Below, one piece after another: positions 7,921 through 64,000 of a DNA stretch of 64,000 nt (within the stretch, counting starts at the first letter, position 1; each line of letters starts with the position of its first letter). The notes under the pieces were generated by a model. That model worked only from the letters and a program-made list of their open reading frames with translations, made no database searches and had not been told where the DNA came from. Position numbers and translations under genes: made by a program. Source of the DNA: an uncultured Anaerolinea sp. (GTDB lineage: Bacteria > Chloroflexota > Anaerolineae > Anaerolineales > UBA4823); assembly GCA_964503145.1 (NCBI GenBank), contig CAZCYV010000015.1, positions 20,378-84,377 of the forward strand. Reading direction: 5' to 3'.

Positions 7921-8002
7921 GTCGGCGTCGGTGGATGATGACACCTGACCTTTTCGCGATCCCGAAATAAACCCTGGCGATAGGAAAAGGAAATCGAAGA
8001 AG

Positions 8003-10083: not shown

Positions 10084-10121
10084 GATCGGTATGAGGTCTT
10101 TAGGAGATCGCTGAACGAAGC

Positions 10122-10607: not shown

Positions 10608-12501
10608 AGATCAAGAGCGCCGTGATTTCTACCTTCTTGGCTTGTTCCTGTCCTTGGCGCTAATTCACGGCCTGATTTACATCTTTCTCGTCCCCCCCTG
10701 GCAACACTACGATGAGCCGAACCATTTCGAAGTCGTCTGGCTGACGGCGCGCTTGAACCGCGTCCCGCTGCCGGGAGACCACAACCCCAAGCTGAGCCGC
10801 CAGGTTTTCCAGTCGATGCTGGAGAACAGCTTTTATGATCGTATGGCTGCCAGACCTTCGCTGCCTGCAGAGGGAGAAAAGGTAAGCATCCCAGGCTATC
10901 CACAGCTTGGTGAGCCGCCGATTTATTATCTGCTGGCCTCGCTGCCTTTGCGAGTAATCCCGCGCGCGGTCTCCATTGAAAAGCAACTCTACGCCGCCCG
11001 GCTGGTCTCGCTGGCGCTGTACCTTTTCACGGTGTTGGCGAGTTGGGGGGCGACGCGAACGGTCGCTCCGCCTGGTCATGCGCTGCGCTGGCTGGCACCG
11101 GCCACGCTGGTGCTGTTGCCGGCGTTCGTCGATCTGATGACGGCGGTGAACAACGATGTGGGGGCGGTGGCGGTCTTTTCGCTGTTCTTCTGGGGTAGCC
11201 TGAGGTTGTCGCTGCAGCGCTTTTCGCTGCCGAATCTGCTGTGGGTGCTGGTAGCAGCTGGGTTGGCATATTTCACGAAAAACACCGCCATGATCGCTCT
11301 GGCAGTGCTGCCGGTGGTTTTGCTATTCGCCGTTTTTCGCGGCCGCTGGCAGGCGCTGGCCTGGGGTATCCTGGGCCTGGGAGCGCTGATTGGGCTAGCG
11401 ATGAGTATCTCATGGCAAGATGCGGCAGGGTGGTATCGCGGGACTTCCCAAACGGGCGGATTGCGCGTAGCCGACGAACGTGCAGTCCATGGCGCTTACG
11501 TGCTGGCGCTTGACGCCCAGGCTGGCGTCATCCCTGACTGGTCGCCGCCGGTCTATCAGGTGCTCCCGCCGGAGCAGGCGCGGTCGTTGCATGCTCAGAC
11601 GGTCACACTGGGGGCATGGATGTGGGCCAGCCAGCCGATCACGGCGGACTTCCCAAGCCTGAGATCCGGCCAAGAGATGTTCACCCGACGGGTCGATCTG
11701 GACACGCAGCCGCAATTCTACGCCCTGCAGGTGGTACTGCCGCCGGGCAGCGATCGGTTGTGGGTCGATCTGAATCCCAGAGTGTCAGGGGATGCGCCCG
11801 TCGTCGTATATTACGATGGGCTGGCGTTGGCGGCGGGGGTGATGGATGTGGATCAGCCGCCGCAGTTCAGCGCGGCGGATGGAGCGCAGGGCGAATGGGG
11901 CGGTCAACCGTTCACGAACCTGTTGCGCAACCCTTCGCTAGAAGCGCCTGGGCCGCGCCTGGCCGCCTGGCTGGACGAGCCGCTCACCGCACTCCTACCG
12001 GATAACGCGCGTCCATCTCAGGTGCTGGCCTCACTGTGGGATTGGGGCGGCGCAGGGTATTTTTATGAGATTGTTTCTGGGCATCTTTTCCGCACCTTTT
12101 GGGCGCGCTTCGGCTGGGGGCATGTCCCGCTGGTCTGGGGATGGGTCTATAATTTATTGATGGGCCTGACTCTGGCGGGCGCGATAGGGGCCGTCTGGGG
12201 TGGCTGGAGGCTGCGGCGGACATTGCCCTGGCCAGCGGTCGCCATCGGAGGATTATCGTTACTGCTGGCCTGGTCTCTGACCCTGGTGCGCGGCGTCGTC
12301 TATTTGCCGTTGCCGGGCTATTACTATCCCACAGCACGCCACGCCTATCCGGCGATTCTACCGGCGGTCCTGGCGCTGAGTTTTGGCTGGTCACAATGGA
12401 TGCGCTGGGGCAGGTGGGTGACGTGGATTTATTGGGCCGGGTTGGTCTTCCTGAGCGTGCTTTCGATATTTAGCGTGGCGCAGTTCTATGGCCGGTTTTA
12501 G
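10549..12501 (+). CDS. Large polytopic membrane protein, GT-C/DUF2142-like (putative glycosyltransferase)
   Basis: First TM followed by PPWQHYDEPNHFEVVW (DExxH-like loop seen in GT-C/DUF2142 proteins), then more than 10 helices. Start is uncertain: the ATG at 10549 overlaps the phosphatase 3' end by 59 nt. Confidence 0.5.
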   Translation: MSESTGWPRTTSLPSNPKSEDQERRDFYLLGLFLSLALIHGLIYIFLVPPWQHYDEPNHFEVVWLTARLNRVPLPGDHNPKLSRQVFQSMLENSFYDRMAARPSLPAEGEKVSIPGYPQLGEPPIYYLLASLPLRVIPRAVSIEKQLYAARLVSLALYLFTVLASWGATRTVAPPGHALRWLAPATLVLLPAFVDLMTAVNNDVGAVAVFSLFFWGSLRLSLQRFSLPNLLWVLVAAGLAYFTKNTAMIALAVLPVVLLFAVFRGRWQALAWGILGLGALIGLAMSISWQDAAGWYRGTSQTGGLRVADERAVHGAYVLALDAQAGVIPDWSPPVYQVLPPEQARSLHAQTVTLGAWMWASQPITADFPSLRSGQEMFTRRVDLDTQPQFYALQVVLPPGSDRLWVDLNPRVSGDAPVVVYYDGLALAAGVMDVDQPPQFSAADGAQGEWGGQPFTNLLRNPSLEAPGPRLAAWLDEPLTALLPDNARPSQVLASLWDWGGAGYFYEIVSGHLFRTFWARFGWGHVPLVWGWVYNLLMGLTLAGAIGAVWGGWRLRRTLPWPAVAIGGLSLLLAWSLTLVRGVVYLPLPGYYYPTARHAYPAILPAVLALSFGWSQWMRWGRWVTWIYWAGLVFLSVLSIFSVAQFYGRF

Positions 12502-41576: not shown

Positions 41577-44500
41577 TCAATCTTTGCTCAGGGCATAGAA
41601 ATACAGCCCTGGCAGGATGGGGTTGCTGTACCAGCCGCGCACCCAGCGCTGCTGATAGCGCCGTCCCAGCGACTGGTACATCAGGATTACTGGCGCCTGC
41701 TCGTAGAACAAGCGGTTGAACTCGGCGTAGACCTGTGTCCGCCGCGCCGGGTCTTGCTCGGCTACGCCGCGGTCGATGATCTCTTTAAAGCGCCGGGTGA
41801 GGTCTGCTGGCAAGTTGAGTTGGCTGCCGAAATTGACCAGGGTATAGGGGACAACCCAGTTATGCGGGTCATGGATGTCCTCGATCCAACTGCCGGTGTA
41901 AATCGGCAGGCGGTCTTCGGCGTAGCGATTCCAATAGTCGTCGCTTTCCAGCGCCGCCGCCTCGACTTTGAACTTCGGGTTCAGCCGGGTCAGTTCGCGC
42001 TGGAAGATCTCGGCGATCTTCTGGCGGGGCAGGCTCCCCTGGGGATAAGGCAGTTTGAGGGCGAAGCCAACGTCCCAGACGCTCGGCCCGCCAAAGCTGG
42101 CCTGGCGAAATTCATCCTGGCAGCGCGCCGGGTCATACTCGTAATGCGGCGCGTCAGCCTCATAGCCGATCATCCCCGGCAACATCACTGTGAACGAACG
42201 CTCCCCCTCGCCTAACATGACCTCCTGCAGGTAACTCTCATAATAGAAGCAGAACTGGAACGCCCGGCGCACGTGAATATTGGAGAAGAACTCTGGCGGG
42301 ACGCCCTTACCGTCCAGTTTGGCGCTGCCGATCAGGTCGTTGCCATCGCGGGCGTTGATCTGCCAGTTCATGAAGATGTCGTAGTCGCGGCTGGCGACGG
42401 GAAAGCCTCGGATTACCTCCAGCGGCCCCAGCAGGTTGCTGCTAAACTGGCATTGTTGATCACTGAGCTGGCAGACCGCGCTGGTCAGGCGGTCCAACTC
42501 AGGCCATTCGGTGTTGTTGGCAGTATGGATCGAGTCGGTCTCGCCGTTGCGCAATGCCGCCAGGCGGGCGTCGAACTCCCGCTGATAGCGAATGACCACC
42601 GTCTTCAGCGCTGGAGCGCCCACTGGCCCGTCAGGCCAGGCAGGTTCGCGGCGCCAGTAACTCTCGTTGGCCTTCAGCACGATCTGTTCCCCCGGCGTCC
42701 AGTTTTCCAGGCGATAGGGGCCGGTGCCCATCGCCCCGGCACCCAGCGGGGTCTTGTTTAAATCCGCGGCGCTGCGTCCGTAATAGTTCTGCCAGGTAGC
42801 GCAGTCGCCATCCCAGCCGCCGTTGGCGATTGTCCAGGCCTTGGAGCGGATGCTGCCCCAGCCATTCGCCAGAGTGACCAGAAATGGCGCCCAGGGTTGC
42901 GCCAGACGGAAGATCACCACCCCGCTGGCGGGATCGGCGTAGATGGCCTGCTGCAGCCGCTGGCACACCTGCAGTAGCCGCCCGGGATCGGCTTTCTTCA
43001 GCCCGGCGGGGTCGTCTATCAGCGCCGGATCGATCAGCGCCGCCACGTCGTATACCCCCACCCCAAAGATCGGCTCGGTCAGCAGCCACATCGGCGAATG
43101 CGATCCGCCCTGCAGGATGTTGCGCTGGAAGGTGTAAACCACGTCCTGAGGAGTCAACGGGCTGCCGTCGTGGAAAGTCACCCCGGGGCGGATCTTGAAG
43201 GTGTAGGTCAGACCATCTGCCGAGATGCCGCCGTTCTCGCGGCTGGGCACTTCCAACGCAAGCTGAGGCACGAGCCGGTTGGGATCATCCCGATAAAAGA
43301 AGACCAGGGTATCGTAAACGTTTTGGATGATCTGTAGCCCCGAAACCTCATAATCCAGCGCCGGGTCCAGTGTGTCTGGCTCGCCGGTATTGATATGCAC
43401 GTAGGTATGCGGGTCTTTGGAATGCACCACCGGTAACGTCGGGATGGGGGTGTTCGTTGGCGGGGCAGGCGGCAGCTGTGTGGAAACAGCGGGCGTCTCG
43501 CTGATTTGCAGACCCAGCGACTGCGGGGTGGTCGCCGCCGGCGGGGTCGGCGTCCCGTCCCCGCGCAGGCCGAGCAACGCCAGCGTCCCGCCCCCCAGGG
43601 TGAGACACAGGATCGCCAGCACCGCTACGCCTCCCAATCCGATCCATAGCCAGGGCGGGCGACGGGCGGCAGCTTTCGGAGCGGTTACAGGCCGGGAGAC
43701 TGGCGGCGCGACCTCCCTCACCGCTGCTGCCGAAATCGCCGCCGGACTGGGCGAAACCAGCACCGGCGCGGCCGCCGAAGGCAGGCACGCCTGCAGCGCA
43801 TCTTTGAACTCGGCCACGCTCTGAAAGCGCTGCGCCGGGTCAAGCGCCAGGGCTTTCTCGATGGCTAGCCCCAGGCGCGGCGGCAGGCGCGGGTTGAGCT
43901 GCCCTGGCGGCTTCAACTGCTCGCCTGCGGCGCGCTGCACGCTCTCCAATGGCTCTTTCCGGGTGACCAACTTGTACAGGGTGGCTCCCAGGGCATAGAT
44001 GTCGGAGCGAGCGTCGGTGCGCCCCAGCCCGTACTGCTCCGGCGGCGCGTAGCCCGGGGTGAGCGCCCGCGCCCCCAGGGTGGTCTTCAGCGTCGGGTCG
44101 GCCATCTTCACCAGGCCGAAATCCACCAGCATCGCTTTGCCTTCGGGGGTGATGCGGATGTTGGAAGGCTTGATATCGCGGTGCAGCACGGGCGGCTGGC
44201 GGTTATGCATATAGATCAGCGCATCGGCTACCTGCAGCATCCACCCCAGGCACTGCTCCAGCGGCAGCGCCTCGCTCCGGCGCAGCAGCGAAGCCAGGTC
44301 TTCCCCCTCCACGAAGTCCATCACCAGGTACTGCCCCTGGTCGGGGATCGAGAAATGGTCTGTCACCCGCGGCAGGTTGGGGTGCGAAAGGTTCGCCAGC
44401 ACCGTCGCCTCGCGGGCGAACTGGCGCCGCGCCTCGGCGGAGGTGTTCAGGTTCTCTTTGACCGCGCAGGGGCGCTGAAGGTTGATGTCCCAGGCTTTGT

Positions 44501-44723
44501 ACACCGCGCCAAAGCCGCCCCGCCCCAGCTCGCGCTCGATGCGGTAGCGCCCCAACAGCGTCTTGCCTGCCTGGGTGACAGCGGCGGCAGGCTGCTCGTC
44601 ATCATTCAGGGCTTGCGGCCCGTTGCGGGGGGCGCTGCCCAGCAGTGGATAGCCACACTCGTTGCAGAAACGAGCGTCGCTGCGGTTCGGCGCGTGACAT
44701 TCGGGGCACAGGATCTCGCTCAT
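41577..44723 (-). CDS. Ser/Thr protein kinase with N-terminal zinc ribbon, TM, and extracellular family-5 solute-binding domain
   Basis: ATG at 44723. CPECHAPNRSDARFCNECG. Kinase motifs GRGGFGAVYKA, AVKE, HRDIKPSNI, DFG, PPEQ. TM segment WLWIGLGGVAVLAILCLTLGGG. SBP_bac_5-like block DTLDPALDYEVSGLQIIQNVYDTLVFF...DGLTYTFKIRPGVTFHDGSPLTPQDVVYTFQR. Confidence 0.85.
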   Translation of the reverse strand: MSEILCPECHAPNRSDARFCNECGYPLLGSAPRNGPQALNDDEQPAAAVTQAGKTLLGRYRIERELGRGGFGAVYKAWDINLQRPCAVKENLNTSAEARRQFAREATVLANLSHPNLPRVTDHFSIPDQGQYLVMDFVEGEDLASLLRRSEALPLEQCLGWMLQVADALIYMHNRQPPVLHRDIKPSNIRITPEGKAMLVDFGLVKMADPTLKTTLGARALTPGYAPPEQYGLGRTDARSDIYALGATLYKLVTRKEPLESVQRAAGEQLKPPGQLNPRLPPRLGLAIEKALALDPAQRFQSVAEFKDALQACLPSAAAPVLVSPSPAAISAAAVREVAPPVSRPVTAPKAAARRPPWLWIGLGGVAVLAILCLTLGGGTLALLGLRGDGTPTPPAATTPQSLGLQISETPAVSTQLPPAPPTNTPIPTLPVVHSKDPHTYVHINTGEPDTLDPALDYEVSGLQIIQNVYDTLVFFYRDDPNRLVPQLALEVPSRENGGISADGLTYTFKIRPGVTFHDGSPLTPQDVVYTFQRNILQGGSHSPMWLLTEPIFGVGVYDVAALIDPALIDDPAGLKKADPGRLLQVCQRLQQAIYADPASGVVIFRLAQPWAPFLVTLANGWGSIRSKAWTIANGGWDGDCATWQNYYGRSAADLNKTPLGAGAMGTGPYRLENWTPGEQIVLKANESYWRREPAWPDGPVGAPALKTVVIRYQREFDARLAALRNGETDSIHTANNTEWPELDRLTSAVCQLSDQQCQFSSNLLGPLEVIRGFPVASRDYDIFMNWQINARDGNDLIGSAKLDGKGVPPEFFSNIHVRRAFQFCFYYESYLQEVMLGEGERSFTVMLPGMIGYEADAPHYEYDPARCQDEFRQASFGGPSVWDVGFALKLPYPQGSLPRQKIAEIFQRELTRLNPKFKVEAAALESDDYWNRYAEDRLPIYTGSWIEDIHDPHNWVVPYTLVNFGSQLNLPADLTRRFKEIIDRGVAEQDPARRTQVYAEFNRLFYEQAPVILMYQSLGRRYQQRWVRGWYSNPILPGLYFYALSKD

Positions 44724-44764
44724 CCGGTTTCTTCCGAGTCGCCCTCCAACCGCGCGTCTGCGCC

Positions 44765-45424
44765 TCAATTCGTCGAGAAAGGCAGGTCGCCGTCCCGCCC
44801 CTCCCGCGAAAGGAAGGCTTCGAGCAAGGCCTGCTCACGGCGGTAAATCTCCAGCACGCGCGCCACCATCTCCTCGGCGTGCACCAATTGCAACAGTTGC
44901 TGCTTCTGGTCGGCGCTGATCTGCAGCACCGACGCTGCCAGATAAGCCAGCTCCAGCGGATCTTCGGGCAGGCGAGACTCATCCAGCGACTTGCCCATGG
45001 CCGTCAACTGGGTCTGCATCAGCCGGATTACCTGGCGGCGCAATTCGCTGCCCTGGCGCGCCAGTTCAGCGCGGTCGCTGACCTCGATGGGGAACGGCTG
45101 CACCTGGCCGACCAGGTAGGGGAAAGCCCGGCTGTCCAAAGACAGGATGCGGAAGCGCTCCTGGCCGATGGCGACGATGTTCATTCGCCCCTCTTCCAGC
45201 GGCTGGACGTTGATGATCGCCGCGGTGCAGCCCACGGTATGCGGCTCGGCCAGCGGCCCCAGCGCCTCGGCCCCGCGGCGGATGAGCACCACGCCGAACG
45301 GCCAGCGCTCATTCAAACACATGCCGATCATGCGCTTGTAGCGCTCCTCGAAAATGTGTAAGTGGATCGGCGCGCCGGGGAAGAGCACGGTGTTGAGCGG
45401 GAATAATGGCAATTCTGTCAGCAT
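44765..45424 (-). CDS. LON substrate-binding (LonN) domain-only protein
   Basis: ATG at 45424. LPLFPLNTVLFPGAPIHLHIFEERYKRMI is the canonical Lon N-terminal motif. No AAA+ or protease part. Confidence 0.8.
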   Translation of the reverse strand: MLTELPLFPLNTVLFPGAPIHLHIFEERYKRMIGMCLNERWPFGVVLIRRGAEALGPLAEPHTVGCTAAIINVQPLEEGRMNIVAIGQERFRILSLDSRAFPYLVGQVQPFPIEVSDRAELARQGSELRRQVIRLMQTQLTAMGKSLDESRLPEDPLELAYLAASVLQISADQKQQLLQLVHAEEMVARVLEIYRREQALLEAFLSREGRDGDLPFSTN

Positions 45425-51354: not shown

Positions 51355-52173
51355 ATGGGCGTCGCGCTGGCGGTCACCTGGAATCCACGCGGCGAGTTGC
51401 CGCGCTTTGAGCGCCTGCTGCCGCAACTGCAGCAGGTGTATCAGGGGCTGGCGATCTCCTTCCCGCCCGACGTAGAGCCGACGACGGCGCAGGTGTTCAC
51501 CCAGGGCAAATACGCCGCCGGGCTGGAAATCCAGACGGCGGTCAACCAGGATTGGAGCTGGGGGCGGTACGTGGCGCTGCGCTTGGGGGCGCAGTTCCAG
51601 GCTGATTTCGTCCACTACGCCGACATGGACCGCCTGCTGCGCTGGGTGGAGACCCGCCCACAGGAATGGCGGCAAGCGGTGCAGGCGATCCAGGCGACGG
51701 ACTGCCTGGTGCTAGGGCGTTCGGCGGCGGCTTATCGCACCCATCCCCAATCGCTGATCCTGACCGAGCAGATCAGCAACCGGGTGGTATCGCACTTCCT
51801 GGGGCGGGCGATGGACGTCAGCGCCGGTTCGAAGGGTTTCAGTGGGGCGGCGGCGGAGTACCTGGCGGCGAATACCCAGCCCGGGCGGGCGCTGGGCACA
51901 GACGCCGAATGGCCGATCCTGCTGCAGCGGGCAGGGTTTCGGGTGGACTACCTGGAGGTGGACGGGCTGGATTGGGAATCGGCCGACCGCTATCAGGAGC
52001 AGGCGGCGGGGGCGGAGGCGCAGCGGCGGGCGGCGGAGCAGGTGGATGCCGACCCACGCGCCTGGGAGTGGCGCGTGCGTGTAGCCAACGAGATTGTCGA
52101 GGCGGCGTTCGAGGCGGCGGCCCGGAAACTGATCCCGGCGGTGGCCGGTGTAAGCGAGGTTCACCATGAATAG
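51355..52173 (+). CDS. Hypothetical protein (272 aa)
   Basis: Clean ORF 12 nt after ilvE, overlapping the next gene by 8 nt. No motif I recognise. Confidence 0.55.
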   Translation: MGVALAVTWNPRGELPRFERLLPQLQQVYQGLAISFPPDVEPTTAQVFTQGKYAAGLEIQTAVNQDWSWGRYVALRLGAQFQADFVHYADMDRLLRWVETRPQEWRQAVQAIQATDCLVLGRSAAAYRTHPQSLILTEQISNRVVSHFLGRAMDVSAGSKGFSGAAAEYLAANTQPGRALGTDAEWPILLQRAGFRVDYLEVDGLDWESADRYQEQAAGAEAQRRAAEQVDADPRAWEWRVRVANEIVEAAFEAAARKLIPAVAGVSEVHHE

Positions 52174-52927
52174 CGCGCAAGGTTGGCAGGACGAAGACGG
52201 CTATGCCAGCGTCTTCGAAGTGGACGACTATCTGTACTTCTACGGCGAGATGCTCACCGATGAAGTCACCGAGCGGCAGGTGGCGGCGCTGACGCAGTTG
52301 CTTGGGCTGGATCGCCCCATGCGCATCCTCGACCTGGGCTGTGGTCACGGGCGGCACGCCAACCGCCTGGCGGCGCTGGGACACCAGGTGACCGGTTACG
52401 ATCGTTCGGTGGGCTTTCTGGACCTTGCCCGGCGCGACGCTGCAGCGCGCGGCGTGAGCGTGGATTACCGCCAGGGCGACATGCGTCAGCTCGATTTCGA
52501 CCAGGCCTTCGACTGTGTCTTGATGCTGTTCACCGTCTTCGGTTATTTCGACGATGACGAAAATCTGCTGGTGCTGCGCAAGGTCGCCCGCGCCCTCAGA
52601 CCCGGCGGTCGGCTGCTGTTCGATATCCTCAATCGGGATGTCTTTCTGGTTGGTTTTCGACCCGATTTCGTCACCGAAAAGCAGGGCAACCTGATGATCG
52701 ACCGCAACCGCTTCGATATGCTCAGCGGCAGGCTGTACAACCAGCGCATCGTCATCCGCGAAGGTGCGCGGCGCGACAAGCCTTTCTTTGTGCGCCTGTA
52801 CAATGCCACCGAGATGCGCGACCTGCTGCGCCAAGCGGGCCTGGAATTGGAGCAGGTTTACGGCGGTTGGGAAGGTCAGCCGTTGAGCACAGAATCGAGA
52901 AGAATGATTATAATCGCTCGGAAGTAG
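52166..52927 (+). CDS. Class I SAM-dependent methyltransferase
   Basis: ILDLGCGHGRHANRLA (motif I), LRPGGRLLFD (post-II). Confidence 0.85.
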   Translation: MNSAQGWQDEDGYASVFEVDDYLYFYGEMLTDEVTERQVAALTQLLGLDRPMRILDLGCGHGRHANRLAALGHQVTGYDRSVGFLDLARRDAAARGVSVDYRQGDMRQLDFDQAFDCVLMLFTVFGYFDDDENLLVLRKVARALRPGGRLLFDILNRDVFLVGFRPDFVTEKQGNLMIDRNRFDMLSGRLYNQRIVIREGARRDKPFFVRLYNATEMRDLLRQAGLELEQVYGGWEGQPLSTESRRMIIIARK

Positions 52928-56213: not shown

Positions 56214-57914
56214 CTATTCTTCCTTGACAATCGGCAACTCCAGGTAACTTGGGCGCTCTGAGTCGTGGTACAGGGTTACATGGGCGGTGCGCGCATCCTG
56301 GCCTGATTCGGCAGCGACGACGCCTCCGCTGTTGTAGTTCTTCTGGATATAGATCGAGTTTGGCGAGACGATCAGCAGCCGCAGACGACTGCCTTTGGCC
56401 ACCTGGCGGGAGAAGAAGGTGAAACCGTCGAATTGGTAGCGCTCGATCTCGCCGGGGGTGACCAGCTTTTCTTCCCGCAGCGACTGGCGATAGCGCGCCC
56501 GCAGCATGTCCTGGGTGAGGTGGATGCACGAGCCATCCAGCAGGATTTCGCTAAGGGTGACCTGGAAATCGGTGTCCGGCACATCCAGGGCGATCCAGGC
56601 GACGAACCGGACATAGCCGGTGATTTCGACGTCCTGCTCGAACGGCTCGCTGTGGTACACCAGCCCGTTGCCGAAGAGGTTCAAGGCGTAGCGCTGATCG
56701 GTGAAGCGGTCTTTGATCTCCTGGCGCTCCAATTCGGCTAGGCGGGTGTCCAGCGGATCGTAGATGTAAGCATCTGGCTGGCTTTTGGCAGGCGGCGCGT
56801 CTTGCAGGAAGCCGGAGTGGAAGACGTCATTGGCGTTGCCATGGGCGGAATTGAGGTACAGGCGGCGCGTCTCGTCCGAGATGGCCTCCAGGCTGTCGGC
56901 GTATTTCCACTCTTCCGCCCCGGCCAGGTAGTAGGCCACCCGTTTTTTCAGGAATTCGGGTTTGGGGCCGCCCTGCATCGTCCAGGCGTACCATTCGGCG
57001 TGCAGCTTGTTCAGGTCGAGCAAACAGGCCTCGCCGAACTTCAGCCCGCCGAATTCACGATTGGGAGTGCGCGTCCCGGCGTGATCCCAGGGGCCGATGA
57101 TCAGATAGTGCTGCTCGCGCGCCGGGGAGGCCGAACGCATATGCTGATGGTAGTAATGCATCGCCCCAGGCTGATCGTCGTCGTAGTGCCCGGTGATGGA
57201 CAGGATGGGGATAGCGATGCGGTCGTATTCCTGCGGAGTGAGCGCCATCGTATCCCAATAGGCGTCGGGGGTGGGGTGCTGCAGCCAGGTCTGGAAATGG
57301 GTGGTGGTGTTGCCGACGACCTGATCGAGTTGATTGAAGGGGCGGTGGCTAAGGTACAGTTCGCGGTACTTCTCGATCCAGAAGGACTCCTCGGCGAACA
57401 GATTGGCGTTGCCGGTCACGCCGCTGACCAGCGTCTGCCATTGCATCTCATAGGCGTACAGGATGTTCTTGAAGAAAGGGAAGTCCACCGCGGCATGCGC
57501 CGCGGCTGCGGGGACGATAGTCTTCAGGTGCGGCGGGAACTCTTTGAGCGCCATCCACTGGTCGAAGCCGGCGTAGGAGCCGCCCCACATCGCCACCGAG
57601 CCATCGCACCACGGCTGGGCCGCCAGCCACTCGACGATGTCATGGGCGTCGCGGCCTTCGTTGACGAACGGCTCGAACTTGCCCTGTGAGTTGCCACGCC
57701 CGCGGCAATCCACCAGGGCGAAGGCGAAGCCGTGATTGGCGAAGTAGTAGGCGCGGGCATGGTAGGAATCGGCGATGTAGGGGGTGAGGGTGAAGATGAC
57801 CGGGGTTGGGGCGGCGTCTTTGGGCCTGTAGAGCGTGGCGTTGAGCAGGACGCCGTCGCGCATTGGGATTTTCAGGCCCCAGGTGAAGTCGATGTTTTGG
57901 GAGGGTTCAGACAT
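56214..57914 (-). CDS. CocE/NonD-family (S15, X-Pro dipeptidyl-peptidase-like) hydrolase
   Basis: IPMRDGVLLNATLYRP..., RGRGNSQG, WGGSYAG (GxSxG-type), with a C-terminal beta-sandwich region. Confidence 0.85.
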   Translation of the reverse strand: MSEPSQNIDFTWGLKIPMRDGVLLNATLYRPKDAAPTPVIFTLTPYIADSYHARAYYFANHGFAFALVDCRGRGNSQGKFEPFVNEGRDAHDIVEWLAAQPWCDGSVAMWGGSYAGFDQWMALKEFPPHLKTIVPAAAAHAAVDFPFFKNILYAYEMQWQTLVSGVTGNANLFAEESFWIEKYRELYLSHRPFNQLDQVVGNTTTHFQTWLQHPTPDAYWDTMALTPQEYDRIAIPILSITGHYDDDQPGAMHYYHQHMRSASPAREQHYLIIGPWDHAGTRTPNREFGGLKFGEACLLDLNKLHAEWYAWTMQGGPKPEFLKKRVAYYLAGAEEWKYADSLEAISDETRRLYLNSAHGNANDVFHSGFLQDAPPAKSQPDAYIYDPLDTRLAELERQEIKDRFTDQRYALNLFGNGLVYHSEPFEQDVEITGYVRFVAWIALDVPDTDFQVTLSEILLDGSCIHLTQDMLRARYRQSLREEKLVTPGEIERYQFDGFTFFSRQVAKGSRLRLLIVSPNSIYIQKNYNSGGVVAAESGQDARTAHVTLYHDSERPSYLELPIVKEE

Positions 57915-58137: not shown

Positions 58138-58878
58138 TTAGCGCTTCTTCCTCCCTGCGGCGTAGAACGTAGGCACGAAGAGCACGCGTGCGCCGCTCGC
58201 CCAGGCCTGGGCGTCGCTCTGCCGCAGACGCGCCAGTTCCTCGGGGGGGAGCGCCCCACCCAGGTCGGCCTGCAGCACCTGCCACTCCTGGGCCAGGTCC
58301 TCCGGCGCAGGCGCAGCGCGCCACTGCCCGCCCAGCACGCCGGTCTCGACTTCCTGCAACCCGGCGGCGTGGAACAGGGCGGCCAGGCGGCGGCCGAGGC
58401 GCGTCTCGGCGCCCTGGCGACGCAGGGCGGCCTCTTGCAGCGCGCCGAGCTGGATCAGTTCGTCGGGGTAGTCGATGCGCCCGCCGTAGTCTGGCTCGGC
58501 CAGGGCCAGCAGCCAGCCGCCAGGGCGAAGAATGCGGCGCATCTCAGCCAGGACGCGGGCGGGGTCGACCACCCATAGCAGCAGAAAATGGCAGCAGACG
58601 ATGTCGAAGCTGGCCTCGGCGTAGGGCAGAAAATGGGCGTCGCCCTGGACAAGCGCCGCGGCAGGTGTGTTGCGCTTTGCCTGGAGCAAAAATGCATCCT
58701 CCAGGTCCAGGCCATGCACCTGGCAGCCGCTCTCGGCCAGCGTGGAGAGCACCGCGCCGGTGCCGCAGCCCACCTCGAGCAGGCGCATGCTGGAGGAAAG
58801 CCCGGCGCGCTGCAACAGATAGCGCCGGATTTGCTCCGTCCAGCGCGCCTGCTGGGTGAAGCGGGCGTGCCAGTTCAT
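58138..58878 (-). CDS. Class I SAM-dependent methyltransferase
   Basis: LLEVGCGTGAVLSTLA (motif I), LRPGGWLLAL. 18 nt downstream of the pseudo-rSAM gene. Confidence 0.85.
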   Translation of the reverse strand: MNWHARFTQQARWTEQIRRYLLQRAGLSSSMRLLEVGCGTGAVLSTLAESGCQVHGLDLEDAFLLQAKRNTPAAALVQGDAHFLPYAEASFDIVCCHFLLLWVVDPARVLAEMRRILRPGGWLLALAEPDYGGRIDYPDELIQLGALQEAALRRQGAETRLGRRLAALFHAAGLQEVETGVLGGQWRAAPAPEDLAQEWQVLQADLGGALPPEELARLRQSDAQAWASGARVLFVPTFYAAGRKKR

Positions 58879-58896
58879 TGTGGCCTCAGCAGCCAG

Positions 58897-60045
58897 CTAC
58901 CCTTTTCCCCAAATCTTTTCCCAGGGATCGTGCAGCAGGTTGCCCAACACGCGGGGATCGCCCTGCGTCGGGCGCACATCGCCGTCCGGTTCGACATAGA
59001 GCCAGGCGCGCCCGGCGCCCTCCATCTGGGCGTCGCTGGCCTCCAGCGCCACCGGGTGCAGCGCCGAATAGGGCACCGGCAGGTTCCACACCAGCTCCAT
59101 CTGCAGCAGGGCGGCGCGGTCGCGGGCGGAGGCCAGCGCCTCTGCCAGCGCCGGGTCGGAGGCGCTGAGCGAAATGCGCCGCACGCCCAGCCCTGCCAGG
59201 CGCTCCAGCAGGCCCGCCGCCGCAGAGTGATTCTCCGGCGTCACGGTCAGGTGCACCGCCACCGAAAGGTCTTCCACCATGGCGTTGCCCACCGCCTGCC
59301 AGGACTGCTCATTCTCCGGCTGAAGCACCAGCAGCAGGTGATCCAGCCCGGCTTGCAGCAGGCGGCCGAGGTAAAGTTCGTCCGCCAGGCGCAGGCCGTT
59401 GGTGAGCAGGCCGGTCACCTGTCCCAGGCGCTCGGCGTGAGCGATCAGCTCAGGCAGGTCGTCGCGTAGGGTAGGCTCACCGCCGGTGAAGATGATGTGG
59501 GGCACCCCAGCCGCCCAGGCCTTATCCAGGATCGTCTGCCACTCTGTGGCGTTCAGCTCGCGGGCGACGCGCTCGATGGGGGCCGAATCGGGTGCTTCGT
59601 CATCGGGCAGGCGGTAGGTCAGGGCACAGTCCAGGCGGTAGGGCGCCGAGATTTCGCCGGAAAAGGGCTTTTGGCGCTCGAAATCCAGATAGGTCACCGG
59701 ATCCAGGTCGGGAGTGTTGATCAGGATCTGAATGCGCTCGGCCAGGTCGAGGTAATCCTGGCGGGCCTGCGCCGGGTCAACCTGATAGCGCGCCGCCATC
59801 AGGCGGGCTGCCTCTTCGACCGGGGTGTTGTGGATGAAGTAGTAAGCGTATTCGGCGGCGGTCTGGTTCAGGTGTAGCACGGTGGCGGCGTTGACGATCA
59901 GCACGCCCCCGCCGTGCGCCTCCATGCGCAGGTGCAGGCGGTAGTTACGCGGGTCATCCGGCGGCGACTGATAGTGGTACAGCCCCGCAGGCAGGGGGCG
60001 AATGGGGGTGAACAGGCGACGGAAGGGTTTGAGCAGAGCGGTCAT
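58897..60045 (-). CDS. Degenerate radical-SAM paralog (pseudo-rSAM) with N-terminal PqqD/RRE-like domain
   Basis: ATG at 60045 overlaps the upstream stop as ATGA. It is colinear with the 60042..61406 product (PYRLD.ALTYR, PHI.FTGGEPTLR.DLPELIA.AE, LLTNG). The CX3CX2C position reads LPDDEAPD (59587..59610). The protein ends (...LLHDPWEKIWGKG) before the SPASM Cys block. Confidence 0.75.
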   Translation of the reverse strand: MTALLKPFRRLFTPIRPLPAGLYHYQSPPDDPRNYRLHLRMEAHGGGVLIVNAATVLHLNQTAAEYAYYFIHNTPVEEAARLMAARYQVDPAQARQDYLDLAERIQILINTPDLDPVTYLDFERQKPFSGEISAPYRLDCALTYRLPDDEAPDSAPIERVARELNATEWQTILDKAWAAGVPHIIFTGGEPTLRDDLPELIAHAERLGQVTGLLTNGLRLADELYLGRLLQAGLDHLLLVLQPENEQSWQAVGNAMVEDLSVAVHLTVTPENHSAAAGLLERLAGLGVRRISLSASDPALAEALASARDRAALLQMELVWNLPVPYSALHPVALEASDAQMEGAGRAWLYVEPDGDVRPTQGDPRVLGNLLHDPWEKIWGKG

Positions 60046-61406
60046 ACGGGCCTCGGTTTGCGGTTTGCCTGATGATAGAGGGGGCATCCGCCGCCGCATT
60101 CGGCAAGCAGGGCGCAGGCATGGCATTTGTCCATCACCATCTGACGCTCGCGCAGGCGGATGGCAAGCTCGTGGTTCCAGATCGACTCCCAGGGGTCGGT
60201 CAACAAGTTGCCCAGGGGCTGGTAATAGGACTGGCAGGGCAGCACAGCGCCATCCGGCTCGACGCACATGTTGTATAGCGCCGCGGTGCAGCCCTTGACG
60301 CCCAATTCGAGCGCCATGGGGTCGAAGTTGCAATATTGGGTGGGGGTGTACCAGATCAGGCGCTGATGGTAGGCGTCGGTGGAGGCGCGCGCCAGCTCCA
60401 GCAGTGGGGCCAGCTCCGCCTCGTCCAGGCCGCTATCTACCGTGGCGCCCCTGCCGGAGTAGATCAGCGCGTTCAGGCCGAGCGTAGGCACGCCCAGCTT
60501 GCCCAGGAAATCCAGCGTCTCGGCCAGGGTGGGGGCGTTCCAGCGCAGCATGGTGGTGTTGGTCATCACGTACAGCGGGCTGTCCAGGGCGTTCTTGACG
60601 CCGGCGACGGTTTGCGCCCAGGCGCCGCGCGCGCCCACCATCTGGTCGTGAATTGCCGGATCGTGCGATTCGAGAGTAATCTGCACGTGATCCAGGCCAG
60701 AACGCACCAGCAGGCGCAGGTAATCGGGGTCCTTCAAGCGGCGGCCGTTGGTGTTCAGGCCGGTGATCTGACCTTTGGCTTCGGCATAGGCGATCAATTC
60801 GGGCAGGTCGGCGCGCAGGGTAGGCTCGCCGCCGGTAAAGACGATATGGGGGATGCCGATTTCCCAGGCGCGGTCGATGATCGCCTTCCAGCGGGCGGTG
60901 TCCAGTTCGGCGAAATCGCGCGGGCGGGCGTTGTAGCAGTGGGCGCAGTCGTTGTTGCAGCGGTAGGTGAGCGCCAGGTCGAGGCGGTAAGGGGCGGAGG
61001 GGCGGGCGGAGAAGGGGGCAATAACCTCCAGGTCCAGGTCGTGCAGGGCGCAGGCGCCGTCTGGACGGGCGAGTTCGGCAATCTGCGTCTGGATTTGCGC
61101 ATAGTCATTGAGCACCTGCTGGCGGGAGACGCGGTAACGACGGCGGATGACCTGCGCCGCCTGAGCTGCGGGGGTCTCGTCCAGCGCCAGGCGGGCCATC
61201 AGCGCCGCGGTGGGATTCAGGTGCATCACCCGGCTGGCGTTGACCAATAACTGCCCGCTGCCATCAGCGTCGATGCGCAGGTGCAGGCGGGCGCGCTCTC
61301 CCGGCGCCTGGCGCTCATAGTGGTGAAGCTGGTGGAAAGCGGGGCGTTCCGCCTCTTCGGGGGCTTTCAGCCATCTGGCGCTCAGCTTCTGCAGGAAGTT
61401 GGTCAT
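60042..61406 (-). CDS. Radical SAM/SPASM enzyme with N-terminal PqqD/RRE-like peptide-recognition domain
   Basis: CNNDCAHC (60936..60959) = CX3CX2C. FTGGEPTL. The C-terminus has ...C..PDGAVLPC... and CHACALLAECGGGC (60084..60125) = CX2CX5CX3C. Residues ~38-112 (LHLRIDADGSGQLLVNASRVMHLNPTAALMARLALDETPAAQAAQVIRRRYRVSRQQVLNDYAQIQTQIAEL) look like PqqD. Confidence 0.88.
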   Translation of the reverse strand: MTNFLQKLSARWLKAPEEAERPAFHQLHHYERQAPGERARLHLRIDADGSGQLLVNASRVMHLNPTAALMARLALDETPAAQAAQVIRRRYRVSRQQVLNDYAQIQTQIAELARPDGACALHDLDLEVIAPFSARPSAPYRLDLALTYRCNNDCAHCYNARPRDFAELDTARWKAIIDRAWEIGIPHIVFTGGEPTLRADLPELIAYAEAKGQITGLNTNGRRLKDPDYLRLLVRSGLDHVQITLESHDPAIHDQMVGARGAWAQTVAGVKNALDSPLYVMTNTTMLRWNAPTLAETLDFLGKLGVPTLGLNALIYSGRGATVDSGLDEAELAPLLELARASTDAYHQRLIWYTPTQYCNFDPMALELGVKGCTAALYNMCVEPDGAVLPCQSYYQPLGNLLTDPWESIWNHELAIRLRERQMVMDKCHACALLAECGGGCPLYHQANRKPRPV

Positions 61407-61460
61407 CTTGACCTCCCTAACCGGCGCAATGCAAAGCGCATCGCGCCTGACGCAAATCGC

Positions 61461-63131
61461 TCAACGTCCACCTCCGGCGCAGGCGCAGGCGCAGCCCGCA
61501 CAGGCGCAGGCACAGGCGCAACCGCCCCCGCTGCGGCCGCCGCCAGAGCGGCTGGGCGGCGGGAGGGGGTTGGTGCGGTTGGTGATTGAGCTGGTGAACT
61601 CGCTCAGGTTGCCCACCACGCTGCTGGAGAAGTTCTGCACTCCGCCCACCACCGAAGCGGCGAAGGCCGAGCCGGGCAGGGAGGGCAGGGAGAAGCTCCC
61701 ACCGCCGGCGCTGGGGCCGCTGGTCGAGGGGGCGCTGATGGTGGAAGGCCGCGGCCCAGCCGAGGGCCGGAAGGTCGGGTCGTAGCGCCCCCACCAGGTG
61801 GGGACGAAGACCGGGCCGGTAAACACCCGCCGTGTGCGCTCGTCGTAATCCTTGTCCAGCATGGTCCATTCCATGTACTTGTCGAAGGTTTCGCTCTTGA
61901 CCTCGGGGGTTTGGGCGGCCTCGACTTGCGCCCAGGCGCGCTCCATGATGTCTTTGTAATAGGCGATGGTCTCTTTGCGGCTGAAGCCTTTCATCTTGGC
62001 CGAAAGGCTCTTGACCAGGTCCACCATCATCTCCTGCAGTTCCTTCTTGCGCCCGGCGCCTTTGGCCTTGAAGGCGTTCAGGAACGCCTTCTCGTAATCA
62101 TACAGTCCCTCGGGCAGCGGGCTGGCGACTTCGATTTCGAGGGGATCTTGCTTGACCACCCGCGCGGCGCCTTTCTTGATCACCCCGAACAAGATCATGG
62201 TGAGCACTTTATCCAGCGGCTGTTCCATCAGCACCGCCGCCTCCACCGCGGTCAGGCCGCGCTTGATGCCCAGGCCTTCGATGGCGATCTTGGGCGGCAG
62301 GTATTGCAGCTTGCGGCGGTTGTTGGAGTAGATGGAAAGAGCGCTGCTGCCGCCGATCAGACCGATCACCCCGAAGCAGCACAGGAAGCCGAACAGGTCA
62401 TCCGGATCGATGCCGGTGGTTTCGGCAAAGCTGGGCGCGACGACTGTGCCTGCAGGCACATATTGGGCGGGGAAGGAGGCGCCGAATTCGTACTGGCGGT
62501 AGCCTTCGGCCTGGGGATTGTTCCAGGTGTAGGTGATGCGTCCCTCGCCGTCCAGGCCGGTCATCGGCTCGGCCGGGAAACCGGGCGGCGCGCTGTGCCA
62601 GCGCGGCTCTTCGGGCTTGACCCCTGGCGGCAGATGGAAGGTGACGGTCATGTTGGTCGTGCCTTGCATGAACTGCTTGCCGAACCAGGTGGGCGAGAAG
62701 ACGAAGCTGGCGTAGTTGGGATCTTTGGAGTCGGTGCGCAGCCAGGAGCCGGCGTTGGGCACGAAGACGAACACTCGGCCAGTCTGGCCGGGGCGGATGG
62801 CCTGCGCGCCCATGACGATGGCAAAGCCGCTGCCCGAGCCCTGATATTCGGAGCGCGAGACGGGGACTTTGACCCCGTTCGCCTCTGCGATGATGCCGCT
62901 GGTCTGGAAGCTGCTGTTGGGCATGCCGACGTCGATGTAGTCGATCGGCGAGGCGCCCGGGGCGTTGGTGAAGACGAAGTTGTACAGGATCGAGGCGCTG
63001 CCGTCTTCGTTGACGAAGACATCTACCCGCAGTTCATCCAGCGAGAAGAGGTAGTTCTGCGCCAGGGCGCTGACCGGGATCAGCGCCAGGAGCAGGATGA
63101 GCACCCCACAGGCCCAACGTGCGCGTTTCAT
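61461..63131 (-). CDS. DUF2207-like membrane protein ending in a (Cys-Ala)n tail
   Basis: ATG at 63131 (GGAGG 5 nt upstream). Signal peptide MKRARWACGVLILLLALIPVSALA. DUF2207-like ectodomain (YLFSLDELRVDVFVNEDGSASILYNFVFTN). One TM segment (FGFLCCFGVIGLIGGSSALSIY) followed by NNRRK. GLTAVEAAVLM motif. Gly/Ser/Pro-rich C-terminal region ending GGGCACACACAGCACACAGGGR. Confidence 0.8.
   Translation of the reverse strand: MKRARWACGVLILLLALIPVSALAQNYLFSLDELRVDVFVNEDGSASILYNFVFTNAPGASPIDYIDVGMPNSSFQTSGIIAEANGVKVPVSRSEYQGSGSGFAIVMGAQAIRPGQTGRVFVFVPNAGSWLRTDSKDPNYASFVFSPTWFGKQFMQGTTNMTVTFHLPPGVKPEEPRWHSAPPGFPAEPMTGLDGEGRITYTWNNPQAEGYRQYEFGASFPAQYVPAGTVVAPSFAETTGIDPDDLFGFLCCFGVIGLIGGSSALSIYSNNRRKLQYLPPKIAIEGLGIKRGLTAVEAAVLMEQPLDKVLTMILFGVIKKGAARVVKQDPLEIEVASPLPEGLYDYEKAFLNAFKAKGAGRKKELQEMMVDLVKSLSAKMKGFSRKETIAYYKDIMERAWAQVEAAQTPEVKSETFDKYMEWTMLDKDYDERTRRVFTGPVFVPTWWGRYDPTFRPSAGPRPSTISAPSTSGPSAGGGSFSLPSLPGSAFAASVVGGVQNFSSSVVGNLSEFTSSITNRTNPLPPPSRSGGGRSGGGCACACACAGCACACAGGGR
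61476..61520 (-). repeat. Imperfect (TGY-GCC)n hexanucleotide repeat encoding CACACACAGCACACA
   Basis: Read codon by codon on the minus strand: TGC GCC TGT GCC TGC GCC TGT GCG GGC TGC GCC TGC GCC TGC GCC. Confidence 0.95.
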
Positions 63132-63198
63132 TTTTGCCTCCATCTTTTTTGTTTTGAGCGGCGAATGACCCGATGAAGCTCGGTTTAAAACCACCGTT

Positions 63199-63552
63199 TT
63201 ACCATTTGGGCTCTTCTTTGAGCTGATAGCTGGTGTGACAGTAAGGGCAGGTGACCACCGGCGCGCCGGCGACCATTTGGACGTTTTCGGGCTTGAGCAC
63301 CCCACCGCAGGATTCGCATTTGAAGGTGTCCATGCTTACATTCGATGGCAAATCGACCTTGACAGTGACGTTGGTGACGCCGGCGGCAGGCTTTTGCCGG
63401 CCGGCCAGCCAGATCAGCCCCAGCCCGATGCCCGCGCTGATCACCCCGACGATGATCCAACCGTCGGGCGCGCTGGGATCGAACGCGCCCCAGATGAACA
63501 GCACGCCGAAAAAGATCAGGATGGCGGCGATAATGTAAAGGATAATTTTCAT
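63199..63552 (-). CDS. Small membrane protein (2 TM) with C-terminal CxxC...CxxC zinc-ribbon
   Basis: MKIILYIIAAILIFFGVLFIWG and WIIVGVISAGIGLGLIWLAG helices. KCESCGG...TCPYCHTSY. Confidence 0.65.
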   Translation of the reverse strand: MKIILYIIAAILIFFGVLFIWGAFDPSAPDGWIIVGVISAGIGLGLIWLAGRQKPAAGVTNVTVKVDLPSNVSMDTFKCESCGGVLKPENVQMVAGAPVVTCPYCHTSYQLKEEPKW

Positions 63553-63849: not shown

Positions 63850-64000
63850 ATGAAGGGCAACGAAAAGGTCATTGCGTTGTTGAACGATCTGCTAGCGGAC
63901 GAGCTTACGGCAATCAATCAGTATATTGTCCACTCGGAGATGTGCCACGATTGGGGTTACGACAAGCTGCACGAAGCCGACGAGAAGCGGGCAATCACCG
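63850..64000 (+). CDS. bfr: Bacterioferritin (5' part, runs off the window)
   Basis: The ATG at 63850 follows GGAGGG. MKGNEKVIALLNDLLADELTAINQYIVHSEMCHDWGY is colinear with Bfr (MKGDxKVIxxLNxxLxxELxAINQY). Confidence 0.85.
   Translation, partial: MKGNEKVIALLNDLLADELTAINQYIVHSEMCHDWGYDKLHEADEKRAIT

Follow-up and report, generated by a model that had tools for sequence, protein, structure and literature searches.

A conserved radical SAM/SPASM cassette of Anaerolineales with a proposed role in modifying the Cys-Ala tail of a membrane protein family

The five-gene cassette and its large membrane protein

The 64,000-nucleotide stretch analyzed here, called the window throughout, comes from an uncultured Anaerolinea sp. 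of the Chloroflexota (assembly GCA_964503145.1, contig CAZCYV010000015.1, positions 20,378 to 84,377 of the forward strand). Close to its end lies a cassette of five genes, in which the initial annotation saw a candidate undescribed system: a radical S-adenosylmethionine (SAM) enzyme of the SPASM type, a paralog of it without cluster cysteines and a methyltransferase, all placed so that they could modify the cysteine-alanine (Cys-Ala) tail of a large membrane protein encoded next to them. For brevity, the small zinc-ribbon protein is called Znr, the 556-amino acid (aa) membrane protein Big and the radical SAM/SPASM enzyme rSAM; the coordinates of all five genes and of their domains are collected in Table 1.

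The list of open reading frames (ORFs) bears out the five co-directional minus-strand genes, and direct reading of the DNA likewise confirms the 54 nt between Big and rSAM, which hold a GGGAGG ribosome-binding site, the ATGA coupling of the rSAM stop to the pseudo-rSAM start, and the 18 nt from pseudo-rSAM to the methyltransferase. Because the successive intergenic gaps are only 67, 54, -4 and 18 nt, they leave no space for a hidden small precursor ORF, a candidate that was rejected on this ground, and the cassette has no alternative small precursor to offer.

Table 1. Genes, domains and other features of the cassette, with their positions in the window (RRE, recognition element of peptides synthesized ribosomally and modified post-translationally, RiPPs; TM, transmembrane; AF2, AlphaFold2)
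Feature	Position	Strand	Description
Znr	63199..63552	(-)	117 aa; two TM segments; cytoplasmic CxxC...CxxC zinc ribbon; ends EEPKW
Big	61461..63131	(-)	556 aa; single-pass membrane protein without Pfam/NCBIfam family; proposed substrate
Big residues 29-221	62469..63047	(-)	extracytoplasmic beta-sandwich; AF2 pLDDT ~85-95; signal-peptide-like segment before it
Big residues 243-269	62325..62405	(-)	TM helix, then NNRRK; AF2 helix 243-269; hydropathy segment 245-268
Big residues 273-456	61764..62315	(-)	conserved cytoplasmic helical domain; motifs GIKRGLTAVEAA, KGFSRKET..YYK.I..AW, WWGRYDP
Big residues 481-524	61560..61691	(-)	leader-like conserved segment, LPGS.FAASV..GVQNFS...GN...FT..IT..TNP.P; candidate RRE docking site
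Big residues 525-537	61521..61559	(-)	Ser/Gly-rich spacer; length and sequence species-variable, ~10 to ~80 residues
Big residues 538-556	61464..61520	(-)	invariant core CACACACAGCACACAGGGR; DNA read directly; proposed modification site
Hairpin	61437..61454	(-)	GC-rich, six pairs, then CTTTGCATTG; in the 54-nt Big-to-rSAM spacer; match to a terminator-like consensus
rSAM/SPASM with fused N-terminal RRE (PqqD-like)	60042..61406	(-)	454 aa; proposed catalyst
rSAM residues 26-113	61068..61331	(-)	RRE/PqqD-like domain; four strands, then three helices; AF2 pLDDT 71-93
rSAM residues 150-157	60936..60959	(-)	CNNDCAHC (CX3CX2C, [4Fe-4S]); C150, C154, C157 invariant in 75/75
rSAM residues 359-441	60084..60332	(-)	SPASM region; C359, C373, C381, C391, C428, C431, C437, C441 in 75/75
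Pseudo-rSAM	58897..60045	(-)	382-aa paralog; RRE-like domain and GGE kept; cluster Cys gone; SPASM region truncated
Class I SAM-dependent methyltransferase	58138..58878	(-)	246 aa; Methyltransf_11; proposed accessory tailoring enzyme

The signal peptide, single TM helix and following NNRRK that had been read from the sequence of Big are upheld by hydropathy, which places a signal-peptide-like hydrophobic segment at residues 3-31, and by the AF2 model. With a signal segment and a single TM helix, the C-terminal tail should be cytoplasmic and so accessible to an Fe-S enzyme; in distant homologs the hydrophobic segments number three, likewise an odd count. The model has an overall pLDDT of 68, with the helical cytoplasmic part at about residues 295-436 and the tail disordered. 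Outside the tail, the cytoplasmic helical domain has the highest block conservation of the protein (0.84-0.91), and its motifs persist in archaeal and distant bacterial homologs. A poorly conserved stretch (residues 461-480) then precedes the leader-like segment, within which L485, P486, G487, F490, A491, A492, Q499, G507, F512, T513, T517, T520, N521, P522 and P524 are invariant and whose motif is still recognizable in the archaea.

The earlier description of Big as DUF2207-like found no support, since the protein has no Pfam match at E<=10 and no NCBIfam match, TIGR04222 included; with no match to these models at any threshold, an identity with DUF2207 (PF09972) or TIGR04222 was discarded. 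Nor did 30 members of the family give any match to Pfam, and at E<=0.01 neither Big nor an archaeal homolog matched NCBIfam. Searches of the PDB with Big, by sequence or by profile, returned nothing significant, and the Foldseek fold search identified only the N-terminal beta-sandwich, with ribophorin I/OST1 and the N-terminal domain of M1 aminopeptidase as the best matches, at low TM-score. The 4800 homologs are all annotated as "hypothetical", and at 50% clustering there are 840 representatives; one JGI record labels a Big homolog "IscA". Some homologs (P0241-P0244 and P0253) have about 770-840 aa, which makes them about 200-280 residues longer, and two stretches of each match the query, which suggests a duplicated N-terminal extracytoplasmic domain; these long forms retain the same Cys-Ala tail.

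Conservation of the tail and of its genetic linkage

Read in the DNA, the codons from 61520 onward give GCACACACAGCACACAGGGR followed by the stop. For comparison, one genome per GTDB species was scanned, which yielded 423 rSAM relatives, and the best 80 were kept; these 80 loci all come from metagenome-assembled genomes of Anaerolineales/Chloroflexota, with an rSAM 63-81% identical to the query. Every one of the 87 Big copies found there terminates in CACACAGCACACAGGGR, and their last 17 residues are identical as protein and encoded by 87 distinct DNA versions that differ only synonymously. Since 87 identical peptides have 87 DNA versions, selection must act on the tail peptide and not on a nucleic-acid element, and for the same reason we dismissed the idea that the tail is meaningless low complexity or a repeat maintained at the DNA or RNA level. 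All copies end ...CACACA(CA)GCACACAGGGR, though the remainder of the protein is only 46-81% identical among the species loci, and the conservation of this Cys-Ala core of 17-19 residues exceeds even that of rSAM. Several species carry two tandem Big genes, and in these both copies keep the tail.

The tail is also kept far outside the Anaerolineales. A search with residues 1-524 alone, the tail being omitted from the query, against 1.84 billion cluster representatives gave 840 relatives at E<=1e-3, and among the 97 listed representatives of at least 480 aa the tail is present in 91, down to 31% identity. Ninety of the 97 end in CACxCx[GS]GG.. and one further has a single substitution; the six without a tail are apparently truncated within the conserved domains. 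Variants of the tail include CACAGCACACACAGGGR and CACACACDSCACACAGGGR, short forms such as CACACACACAGGGR and CACACAGGGR, and archaeal forms with three blocks (e.g. CVCACHACACACACVSCACACAGGGAR). A tail has between 3 and 10 cysteines, most often 7, in C-A/V-C repeats, and because this number varies so much a repeated modification is favored over a single fixed metal site.

The genetic linkage of the tail to the enzyme is as regular as the tail itself. Neighbors were counted by tblastn with the window proteins, a locus being informative for Big where at least 1.8 kb of upstream sequence was available. Big lies directly upstream of rSAM in 76/76 informative loci, Znr is present in 72/73, pseudo-rSAM lies downstream in 76/76 (adjacent in 41, with unrelated genes inserted elsewhere) and the methyltransferase downstream in 64/73 (adjacent in 26). 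The synteny of rSAM orthologs with Cys-Ala-tailed neighbors on which the first proposal depended is therefore there in every informative Anaerolineales locus, and it holds in other bacteria and in archaea as well; the co-occurrence of pseudo-rSAM and methyltransferase that had been put up for checking along with it stands in the Anaerolineales, and archaeal and some bacterial loci are without them. All-against-all clustering of the neighboring ORFs of the 80 loci gave no further conserved partner. At L012, L017, L023, L025, L030, L033, L046, L050, L058 and L077, mostly from "MFD" assemblies, the matches to Big, pseudo-rSAM or the methyltransferase are split between frames, which probably reflects assembly or indel errors rather than pseudogenes; at L077 one continuous reading frame spans the C-terminal part of Big and the rSAM gene.

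Beyond the order, the partnership of Big with rSAM extends to hundreds of bacteria and some archaea, and the trio of Znr, Big and rSAM occurs in at least six gene orders. A GC-rich bacterium (L081) has Znr-rSAM-pseudo-rSAM-Big-methyltransferase, with a pseudo-rSAM that here retains its SPASM cysteines; two other bacterial loci, neither with a pseudo-rSAM, have Znr-rSAM-Big-Big-methyltransferase (L086) and Big-rSAM (L089). Among the archaea, the order is Znr-Big-rSAM in L082-84 (with TBP and Alba on the contig) and in L088, and rSAM-Znr-Big in L087 (with Alba, Sec61beta and PolD on the contig); the archaeal identity of these contigs follows from the TBP, Alba, Sec61beta and PolD genes together with the source names of the clusters (Bathyarchaeia, Aigarchaeota and Nitrososphaeria). 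Pseudo-rSAM and methyltransferase are missing from the archaeal loci; the methyltransferase does accompany the other genes in L081 and L086 and on many metagenome contigs. The conserved core thus consists of Znr, Big and rSAM, with pseudo-rSAM and methyltransferase as lineage-specific accessories.

A scan of metagenome contigs seeded with the back-translated tail pattern alone gave at least 120 contigs. Among the matches listed, each tail with readable upstream sequence terminates a Big homolog, and the tail is, within that set, not a portable tag carried by other families; 99 of the 120 listed contigs have an rSAM ortholog, 20 are too short on one side, and the remaining one, L138, has none within 2.9 kb. 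Because the linkage survives rearrangement and crosses the domains of life, a shared function of the three genes is strongly supported, and the association of Znr, Big and rSAM, as read from these sequences, points to an undescribed system for modifying a protein tail.

The radical SAM enzyme, its paralog and the surrounding genes

Both cysteine motifs first described for rSAM, CNNDCAHC and a C-terminal CX2CX5CX3C block, are in place (C150/C154/C157 and C428-x2-C431-x5-C437-x3-C441), and the N-terminal PqqD/RRE-like domain, first put at about 75 aa, is recovered by PF05402 and by the AF2 model at residues 26-113. Over 75 species, 152 of the 454 positions are at least 97% invariant, and these include 12 cysteines (C119 and those of the cluster and the SPASM region); C381 is substituted in one archaeal ortholog. 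Pfam gives 96 bits for PF04055 and 36.7 bits for the SPASM domain PF13186 (cutoff 21.5), so that of the family matches proposed for the two proteins those of rSAM to PF04055, PF13186 and PF05402 were obtained and those of Big to DUF2207 and TIGR04222 were not. In the AF2 model (pTM 0.75) the N-terminal strands and three helices are followed by the barrel, and a Foldseek search with this model places SkfB first and SuiB next, over 403-478 aligned columns that include the RRE; by sequence, the closest solved structures are PqqE (72 bits) and SkfB (64 bits). As judged from sequence and model, the architecture is that of an RRE-dependent peptide maturase, with RRE, radical SAM and SPASM domains arranged as in SkfB and SuiB.

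No curated family claims the enzyme, which is publicly annotated as "radical SAM protein" or "PqqD family peptide modification chaperone". Neither rSAM nor its distant orthologs reach the cutoff of any NCBIfam model, the highest scores against cutoff being 130/500 for NirJ2, 121/381 for PqqE, 118/650 for AhbC and 116/500 for AhbD, with several peptide maturases after these; NirJ has 100/515 and the mycofactocin maturase MftC 97/265, and the AlbA and SkfB models align across the full length of the rSAM orthologs, below cutoff. A placement inside a characterized non-peptide family, named at the outset as a ground for refutation, is thus contradicted by scores for NirJ2, PqqE and AhbD that are far below their cutoffs. 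The conserved neighbors are Znr, Big, pseudo-rSAM and the methyltransferase only, with no tetrapyrrole-pathway gene and no sulfatase among them, and no pqq genes were found in the species loci. No anSME model stands among the best 25 of the 66 NCBIfam matches, and anSME is only a mid-rank fold match to rSAM, in which an RRE is present.

The presence of PqqE and the mycofactocin maturase among the closest sequence relatives of rSAM raises the question of whether the tail might be a RiPP or cofactor precursor in the manner of PqqA and MftA, modified by rSAM and then detached by a protease from another locus to act as a free small molecule or peptide. Invariant cores are typical of such cofactor precursors, and the tail has one; a hydrolase of the S15/CocE-NonD type is also encoded just downstream in the window. 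This hydrolase, however, is absent from all 80 species loci, and no protease, exporter or cofactor-processing gene is conserved in the cassette. It would moreover be implausible for a conserved 540-residue membrane protein to be spent on every molecule released, and the other domains of Big are strongly conserved too. We therefore consider a released product decidedly improbable.

A different role for the membrane proteins would be that of anchors or adaptors, Big and Znr recruiting rSAM through its RRE to a membrane substrate, a lipid for example, while the tail serves some unrelated purpose. The partner proteins are indeed all membrane proteins, and rSAM has a weak similarity to the lipid-modifying radical SAM enzyme GDGT-MAS/Tes. 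In contrast to the full-length alignments with SkfB and SuiB, however, that with GDGT-MAS is confined to the radical SAM core (225 columns, TMq 0.38), and peptide binding is what RRE domains are known for (PMC8188230). Recruitment to a lipid would also leave unexplained both the invariance of the tail and its universal co-occurrence with rSAM, and strikes us as very improbable.

Pseudo-rSAM, described at the outset as a paralog that had lost its cluster cysteines, is 40% identical to rSAM and does have just one cysteine, C140, at a non-cluster position; it stops ahead of the CX2CX5CX3C block. Its Pfam matches are a partial Radical_SAM and a sub-threshold PqqD, and only 27 of its positions are invariant, mainly in the RRE-like region and around the retained GGE. 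With 47.5 bits against a cutoff of 525, it is not a member of the pseudo-SAM/SPASM family TIGR04347. The assignment of the last gene as a class I SAM methyltransferase also stands (Methyltransf_11, 91 bits); the best NCBIfam model, the DVU_1556 family (NF045667), is matched at 87 bits against a cutoff of 155, over the SAM-binding half only. In 12 species a putative redox protein of the C_GCAxxG_C_C family (PF09719, 108 bits) is encoded directly before the methyltransferase (e.g. L033 10225-10680 (+)), and a gene of this family presumably adjoins DVU_1556 in Desulfovibrio; the methyltransferase may make up a separate module with the C_GCAxxG_C_C protein. The two TM segments and zinc ribbon attributed to Znr agree with its two hydrophobic segments (residues 1-29 and 29-52) and its CxxC...CxxC; the zinc-ribbon matches in Pfam are under cutoff (Zn_ribbon_8, 18.4 bits), and between Chloroflexota and archaea no change is seen in the four cysteines or in a C-terminal E-x-P-x-W.

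Several other elements lie around the cassette. In about 30 of the 80 species loci a suf Fe-S operon (Rieske ferredoxin, SufU/NifU_N, SufS and SufBD) is found downstream, tail-to-tail on the opposite strand (e.g. L003 10259-14056 (-)). Being limited to these loci, on the opposite strand and absent from distant loci, it was rejected as a part of the cassette, and it could either be an inherited neighborhood or be loosely connected in function to an enzyme rich in Fe-S. In the window itself a bacterioferritin gene diverges from the cassette (63850-64000 (+)) and continues beyond the window end, its first 49 residues matching TIGR00754 at 56 bits; related loci lack this neighbor and have PstB and PhoU upstream instead. 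The CocE/NonD-family S15 hydrolase mentioned above (56214-57914 (-); TIGR00976, 284 bits) begins 223 nt past the methyltransferase on the same strand; its absence from all the species loci excluded it as a cassette member, and it is probably unrelated.

Further away, about 5 kb from the cassette and on the opposite strand, a second class I methyltransferase (Methyltransf_25, 83 bits) is encoded at 52166-52927 (+), upstream of leuS, and at 41577-44768 (-) there is a gene for a 1063-aa protein that combines an N-terminal zinc ribbon, a Ser/Thr kinase and a C-terminal SBP_bac_5 domain, an unusual sensor-kinase architecture. The PADLOC anti-phage models gave only generic similarity, of rSAM to pVip and of the methyltransferase to mad2, with nothing for Znr or Big, and an anti-phage defense system was ruled out accordingly. 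Upstream of the cassette, no riboswitch or other known RNA was found at E<=1. The hairpin between Big and rSAM is possibly an attenuator, which could reduce expression of the enzyme relative to its substrate; terminator-like matches in the region are fewer than expected from shuffled sequence, so that the evidence for this hairpin is weak.

A possible protein-maturation cassette

The best explanation of these sequence features, in our view, is a conserved protein-maturation cassette in which the C-terminus of Big is built like a RiPP precursor, with leader, spacer and core; the linkage of Big is near-universal and the leader-spacer-core layout is there, yet the carrier is a 556-aa membrane protein. 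From the conservation of the tail, the predicted fold of rSAM and the analogy with known maturases, we conclude that rSAM probably modifies the cytoplasmic Cys-Ala tail of Big in place, most likely by introducing thioether cross-links. The enzyme would dock on Big by means of its fused RRE, probably at the leader-like segment (residues 481-524). Reductive cleavage of SAM would then generate a 5'-deoxyadenosyl radical, and this would abstract hydrogen atoms from the Cys-Ala core while the tail remains attached to Big at the cytoplasmic face of the membrane. The expected products would be intramolecular thioethers from the sulfur of a cysteine to the alpha- or beta-carbon of a neighboring or cross-strand alanine, which could convert the tail into a rigid ladder or knot.

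Thioether formation is, by analogy, the most likely chemistry for several reasons: the universal residue of the tail is cysteine; the best structural neighbor of rSAM, SkfB, is a sactisynthase; alanine is as constrained as cysteine, as would be expected of a reaction partner or of a tight fit in the active site; and the number of repeats varies as it does in repeated-motif ranthipeptides. Epimerization of alternate residues, which would start with the same abstraction of an alpha-carbon hydrogen, is the second-best candidate and a serious alternative. Znr would be an obligatory membrane partner, which may serve to tether the enzyme or the tail to the membrane. In the Chloroflexota and some other bacteria, the duplicated, catalytically dead pseudo-rSAM with its RRE is probably a non-catalytic substrate-binding subunit. 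A precedent for such a separate subunit is the sactisynthase RumMC2, which requires its RRE to form thioethers and regains part of its activity when an RRE is provided in trans (PMC8188230). The class I methyltransferase would probably add a tailoring methyl group.

A number of points weigh against this reading. Linkage alone is no proof that the tail is the substrate of rSAM, and the sequence does not tell whether thioether formation, epimerization or some other chemistry takes place. The PqqD match (PF05402, residues 55-105) has a score of 24.2 bits, barely above the cutoff of 23.4, and AF2 gives no structure for the tail and the leader-like segment of Big (pLDDT 27-58). Neither the 80 species loci nor the distant ones have a conserved protease or transporter, which speaks against a classical RiPP pathway. 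At least three contigs, in addition, have a tail and no rSAM at hand: L138, with pseudo-rSAM, Big and the methyltransferase, has none within 2.9 kb; L141 has none within 1.5 kb upstream and 5 kb downstream; and L085, where two tandem Big genes with tails lie at 8001-11602, has no SPASM-type rSAM within 8 kb. In L085 and L141, either the maturase is encoded elsewhere in the genome or the tail functions without one. L085 is a bacterial contig of 41% GC with a gene for a B12-binding radical SAM protein four genes off, on the other strand.

A tail that functions without covalent modification could be a cytoplasmic thiolate site where a metal or Fe-S cluster is bound, much as in metallothionein or CopY. 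In that case rSAM and Znr would be functional partners of Big, and the tail may donate a cluster or electrons to them or have a regulatory role. It tells for such a site, and against modification, that a CxC...CxC motif binds Cu(I) and Zn(II) in CopY (PMC12648655). The suf operon beside the cassette in about 30 of the 80 species loci, the divergent bacterioferritin gene of the window and the "IscA" label of one Big homolog in JGI fit in with it as well; the suf and bacterioferritin neighbors, however, are not conserved outside sub-lineages. In metal-binding cysteine motifs the residues in between can normally vary, whereas the alanine and glycine positions of the tail are as invariant as its cysteines, and a cysteine number between 3 and 10 speaks against one defined cluster site. 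The tight linkage of an RRE-bearing SPASM enzyme to the tail across different gene orders is, furthermore, the signature of a maturase and its substrate. On balance we regard an unmodified metal site as unlikely, and none of the three rival explanations, this one, a released product or recruitment to a membrane substrate, accounts for the full pattern as well as does modification of the tail by rSAM.

Searches of the open-access literature gave no description of a Znr/Big/rSAM tail system, and the nearest relatives are to be sought among several better known ones. The sactipeptide and ranthipeptide maturases (SkfB, AlbA, RumMC, CteB with SCIFF, and PapB) have the same order of RRE, radical SAM and SPASM domains, and there too a Cys-rich substrate is encoded beside the enzyme; SCIFF has a widely conserved and near-invariant Cys-rich core of unknown role. 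The proposed substrate here, in contrast, is no peptide of 40-60 aa but a tail, with cysteines and alanines in strict alternation, on a membrane protein of about 550 aa, and there is no leader protease or exporter; the two-TM zinc-ribbon partner is obligatory, the system spans Bacteria and Archaea, and no NCBIfam cutoff for such a maturase is reached. The closest precedent for in-place modification of a protein is the SPASM-type radical SAM enzyme QhpD, which makes cysteine thioether cross-links in QhpC, a subunit that is kept in the mature protein. QhpC, however, is a small soluble periplasmic subunit with a quinone cofactor, its cross-links run from Cys to Asp or Glu, and no qhp genes are present here.

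PqqE with PqqD and PqqA, and MftC with MftB and MftA, share with the cassette a PqqD-type RRE, and their precursors resemble the invariant C-terminal core of Big, but pqqB/C and mft genes are absent here, RRE and enzyme are fused, neither the Glu/Tyr nor the Val-Tyr of these precursors is found in the core, and the proposed substrate is not a small peptide like PqqA or MftA. Pairs of a radical SAM enzyme and a paralog are likewise found with TIGR04347, whose paralog has no SAM-cluster cysteines, and in the systems HxsB/C, ScmE/F and TrnC/D. Compared with TIGR04347, the pseudo-rSAM of the cassette is also without the SPASM cysteines, keeps an RRE and the GGE, and is dispensable in the archaeal and some bacterial versions. 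In the bufferins, conserved precursors larger than peptides, enzymatic rewriting of cysteines leads to a metal-binding function, the chelation of copper (PMC12452194); the enzyme there is an MNIO and the proteins are exported to the periplasm, whereas the cassette has a radical SAM enzyme and the cytoplasmic tail of a membrane protein. As far as its sequence goes, then, the system is outside every curated family tested and appears to work like an RRE/SPASM maturase acting on a neighboring substrate.

To our knowledge, the radical SAM/SPASM maturases described so far act almost entirely on small secreted peptides and a few cofactor precursors. The apparent target here is of another kind. Because its core is invariant like that of a cofactor, and yet no protease or exporter accompanies it, a structure tethered to the protein is indicated. 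Tentatively, and with more doubt than we attach to the modification as such, the tail might become a new protein-derived prosthetic structure, either a thioether ladder made by rSAM or a stretch of alternating D- and L-residues in the Cys-Ala core, held at the cytoplasmic end of the Big family, which would be an ancient one common to Bacteria and Archaea and so far overlooked, and conferring a redox, metal-binding or membrane-inserting function without counterpart among described systems.

The distribution of the cassette over Chloroflexota, other bacteria and the archaeal Thermoproteota suggests that this is a housekeeping type of protein modification and not the making of an antibiotic. The Big family is large, with 840 cluster representatives and thousands of members, and has had neither a Pfam or NCBIfam model nor an annotated function. 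If the proposal is right, its tail would constitute a new class of substrate for RiPP-type enzymes, possibly with a new Cys-Ala chemistry, and would provide a functional handle on a conserved unknown of the Anaerolineae, a group that is plentiful in sludge, sediments and soils.

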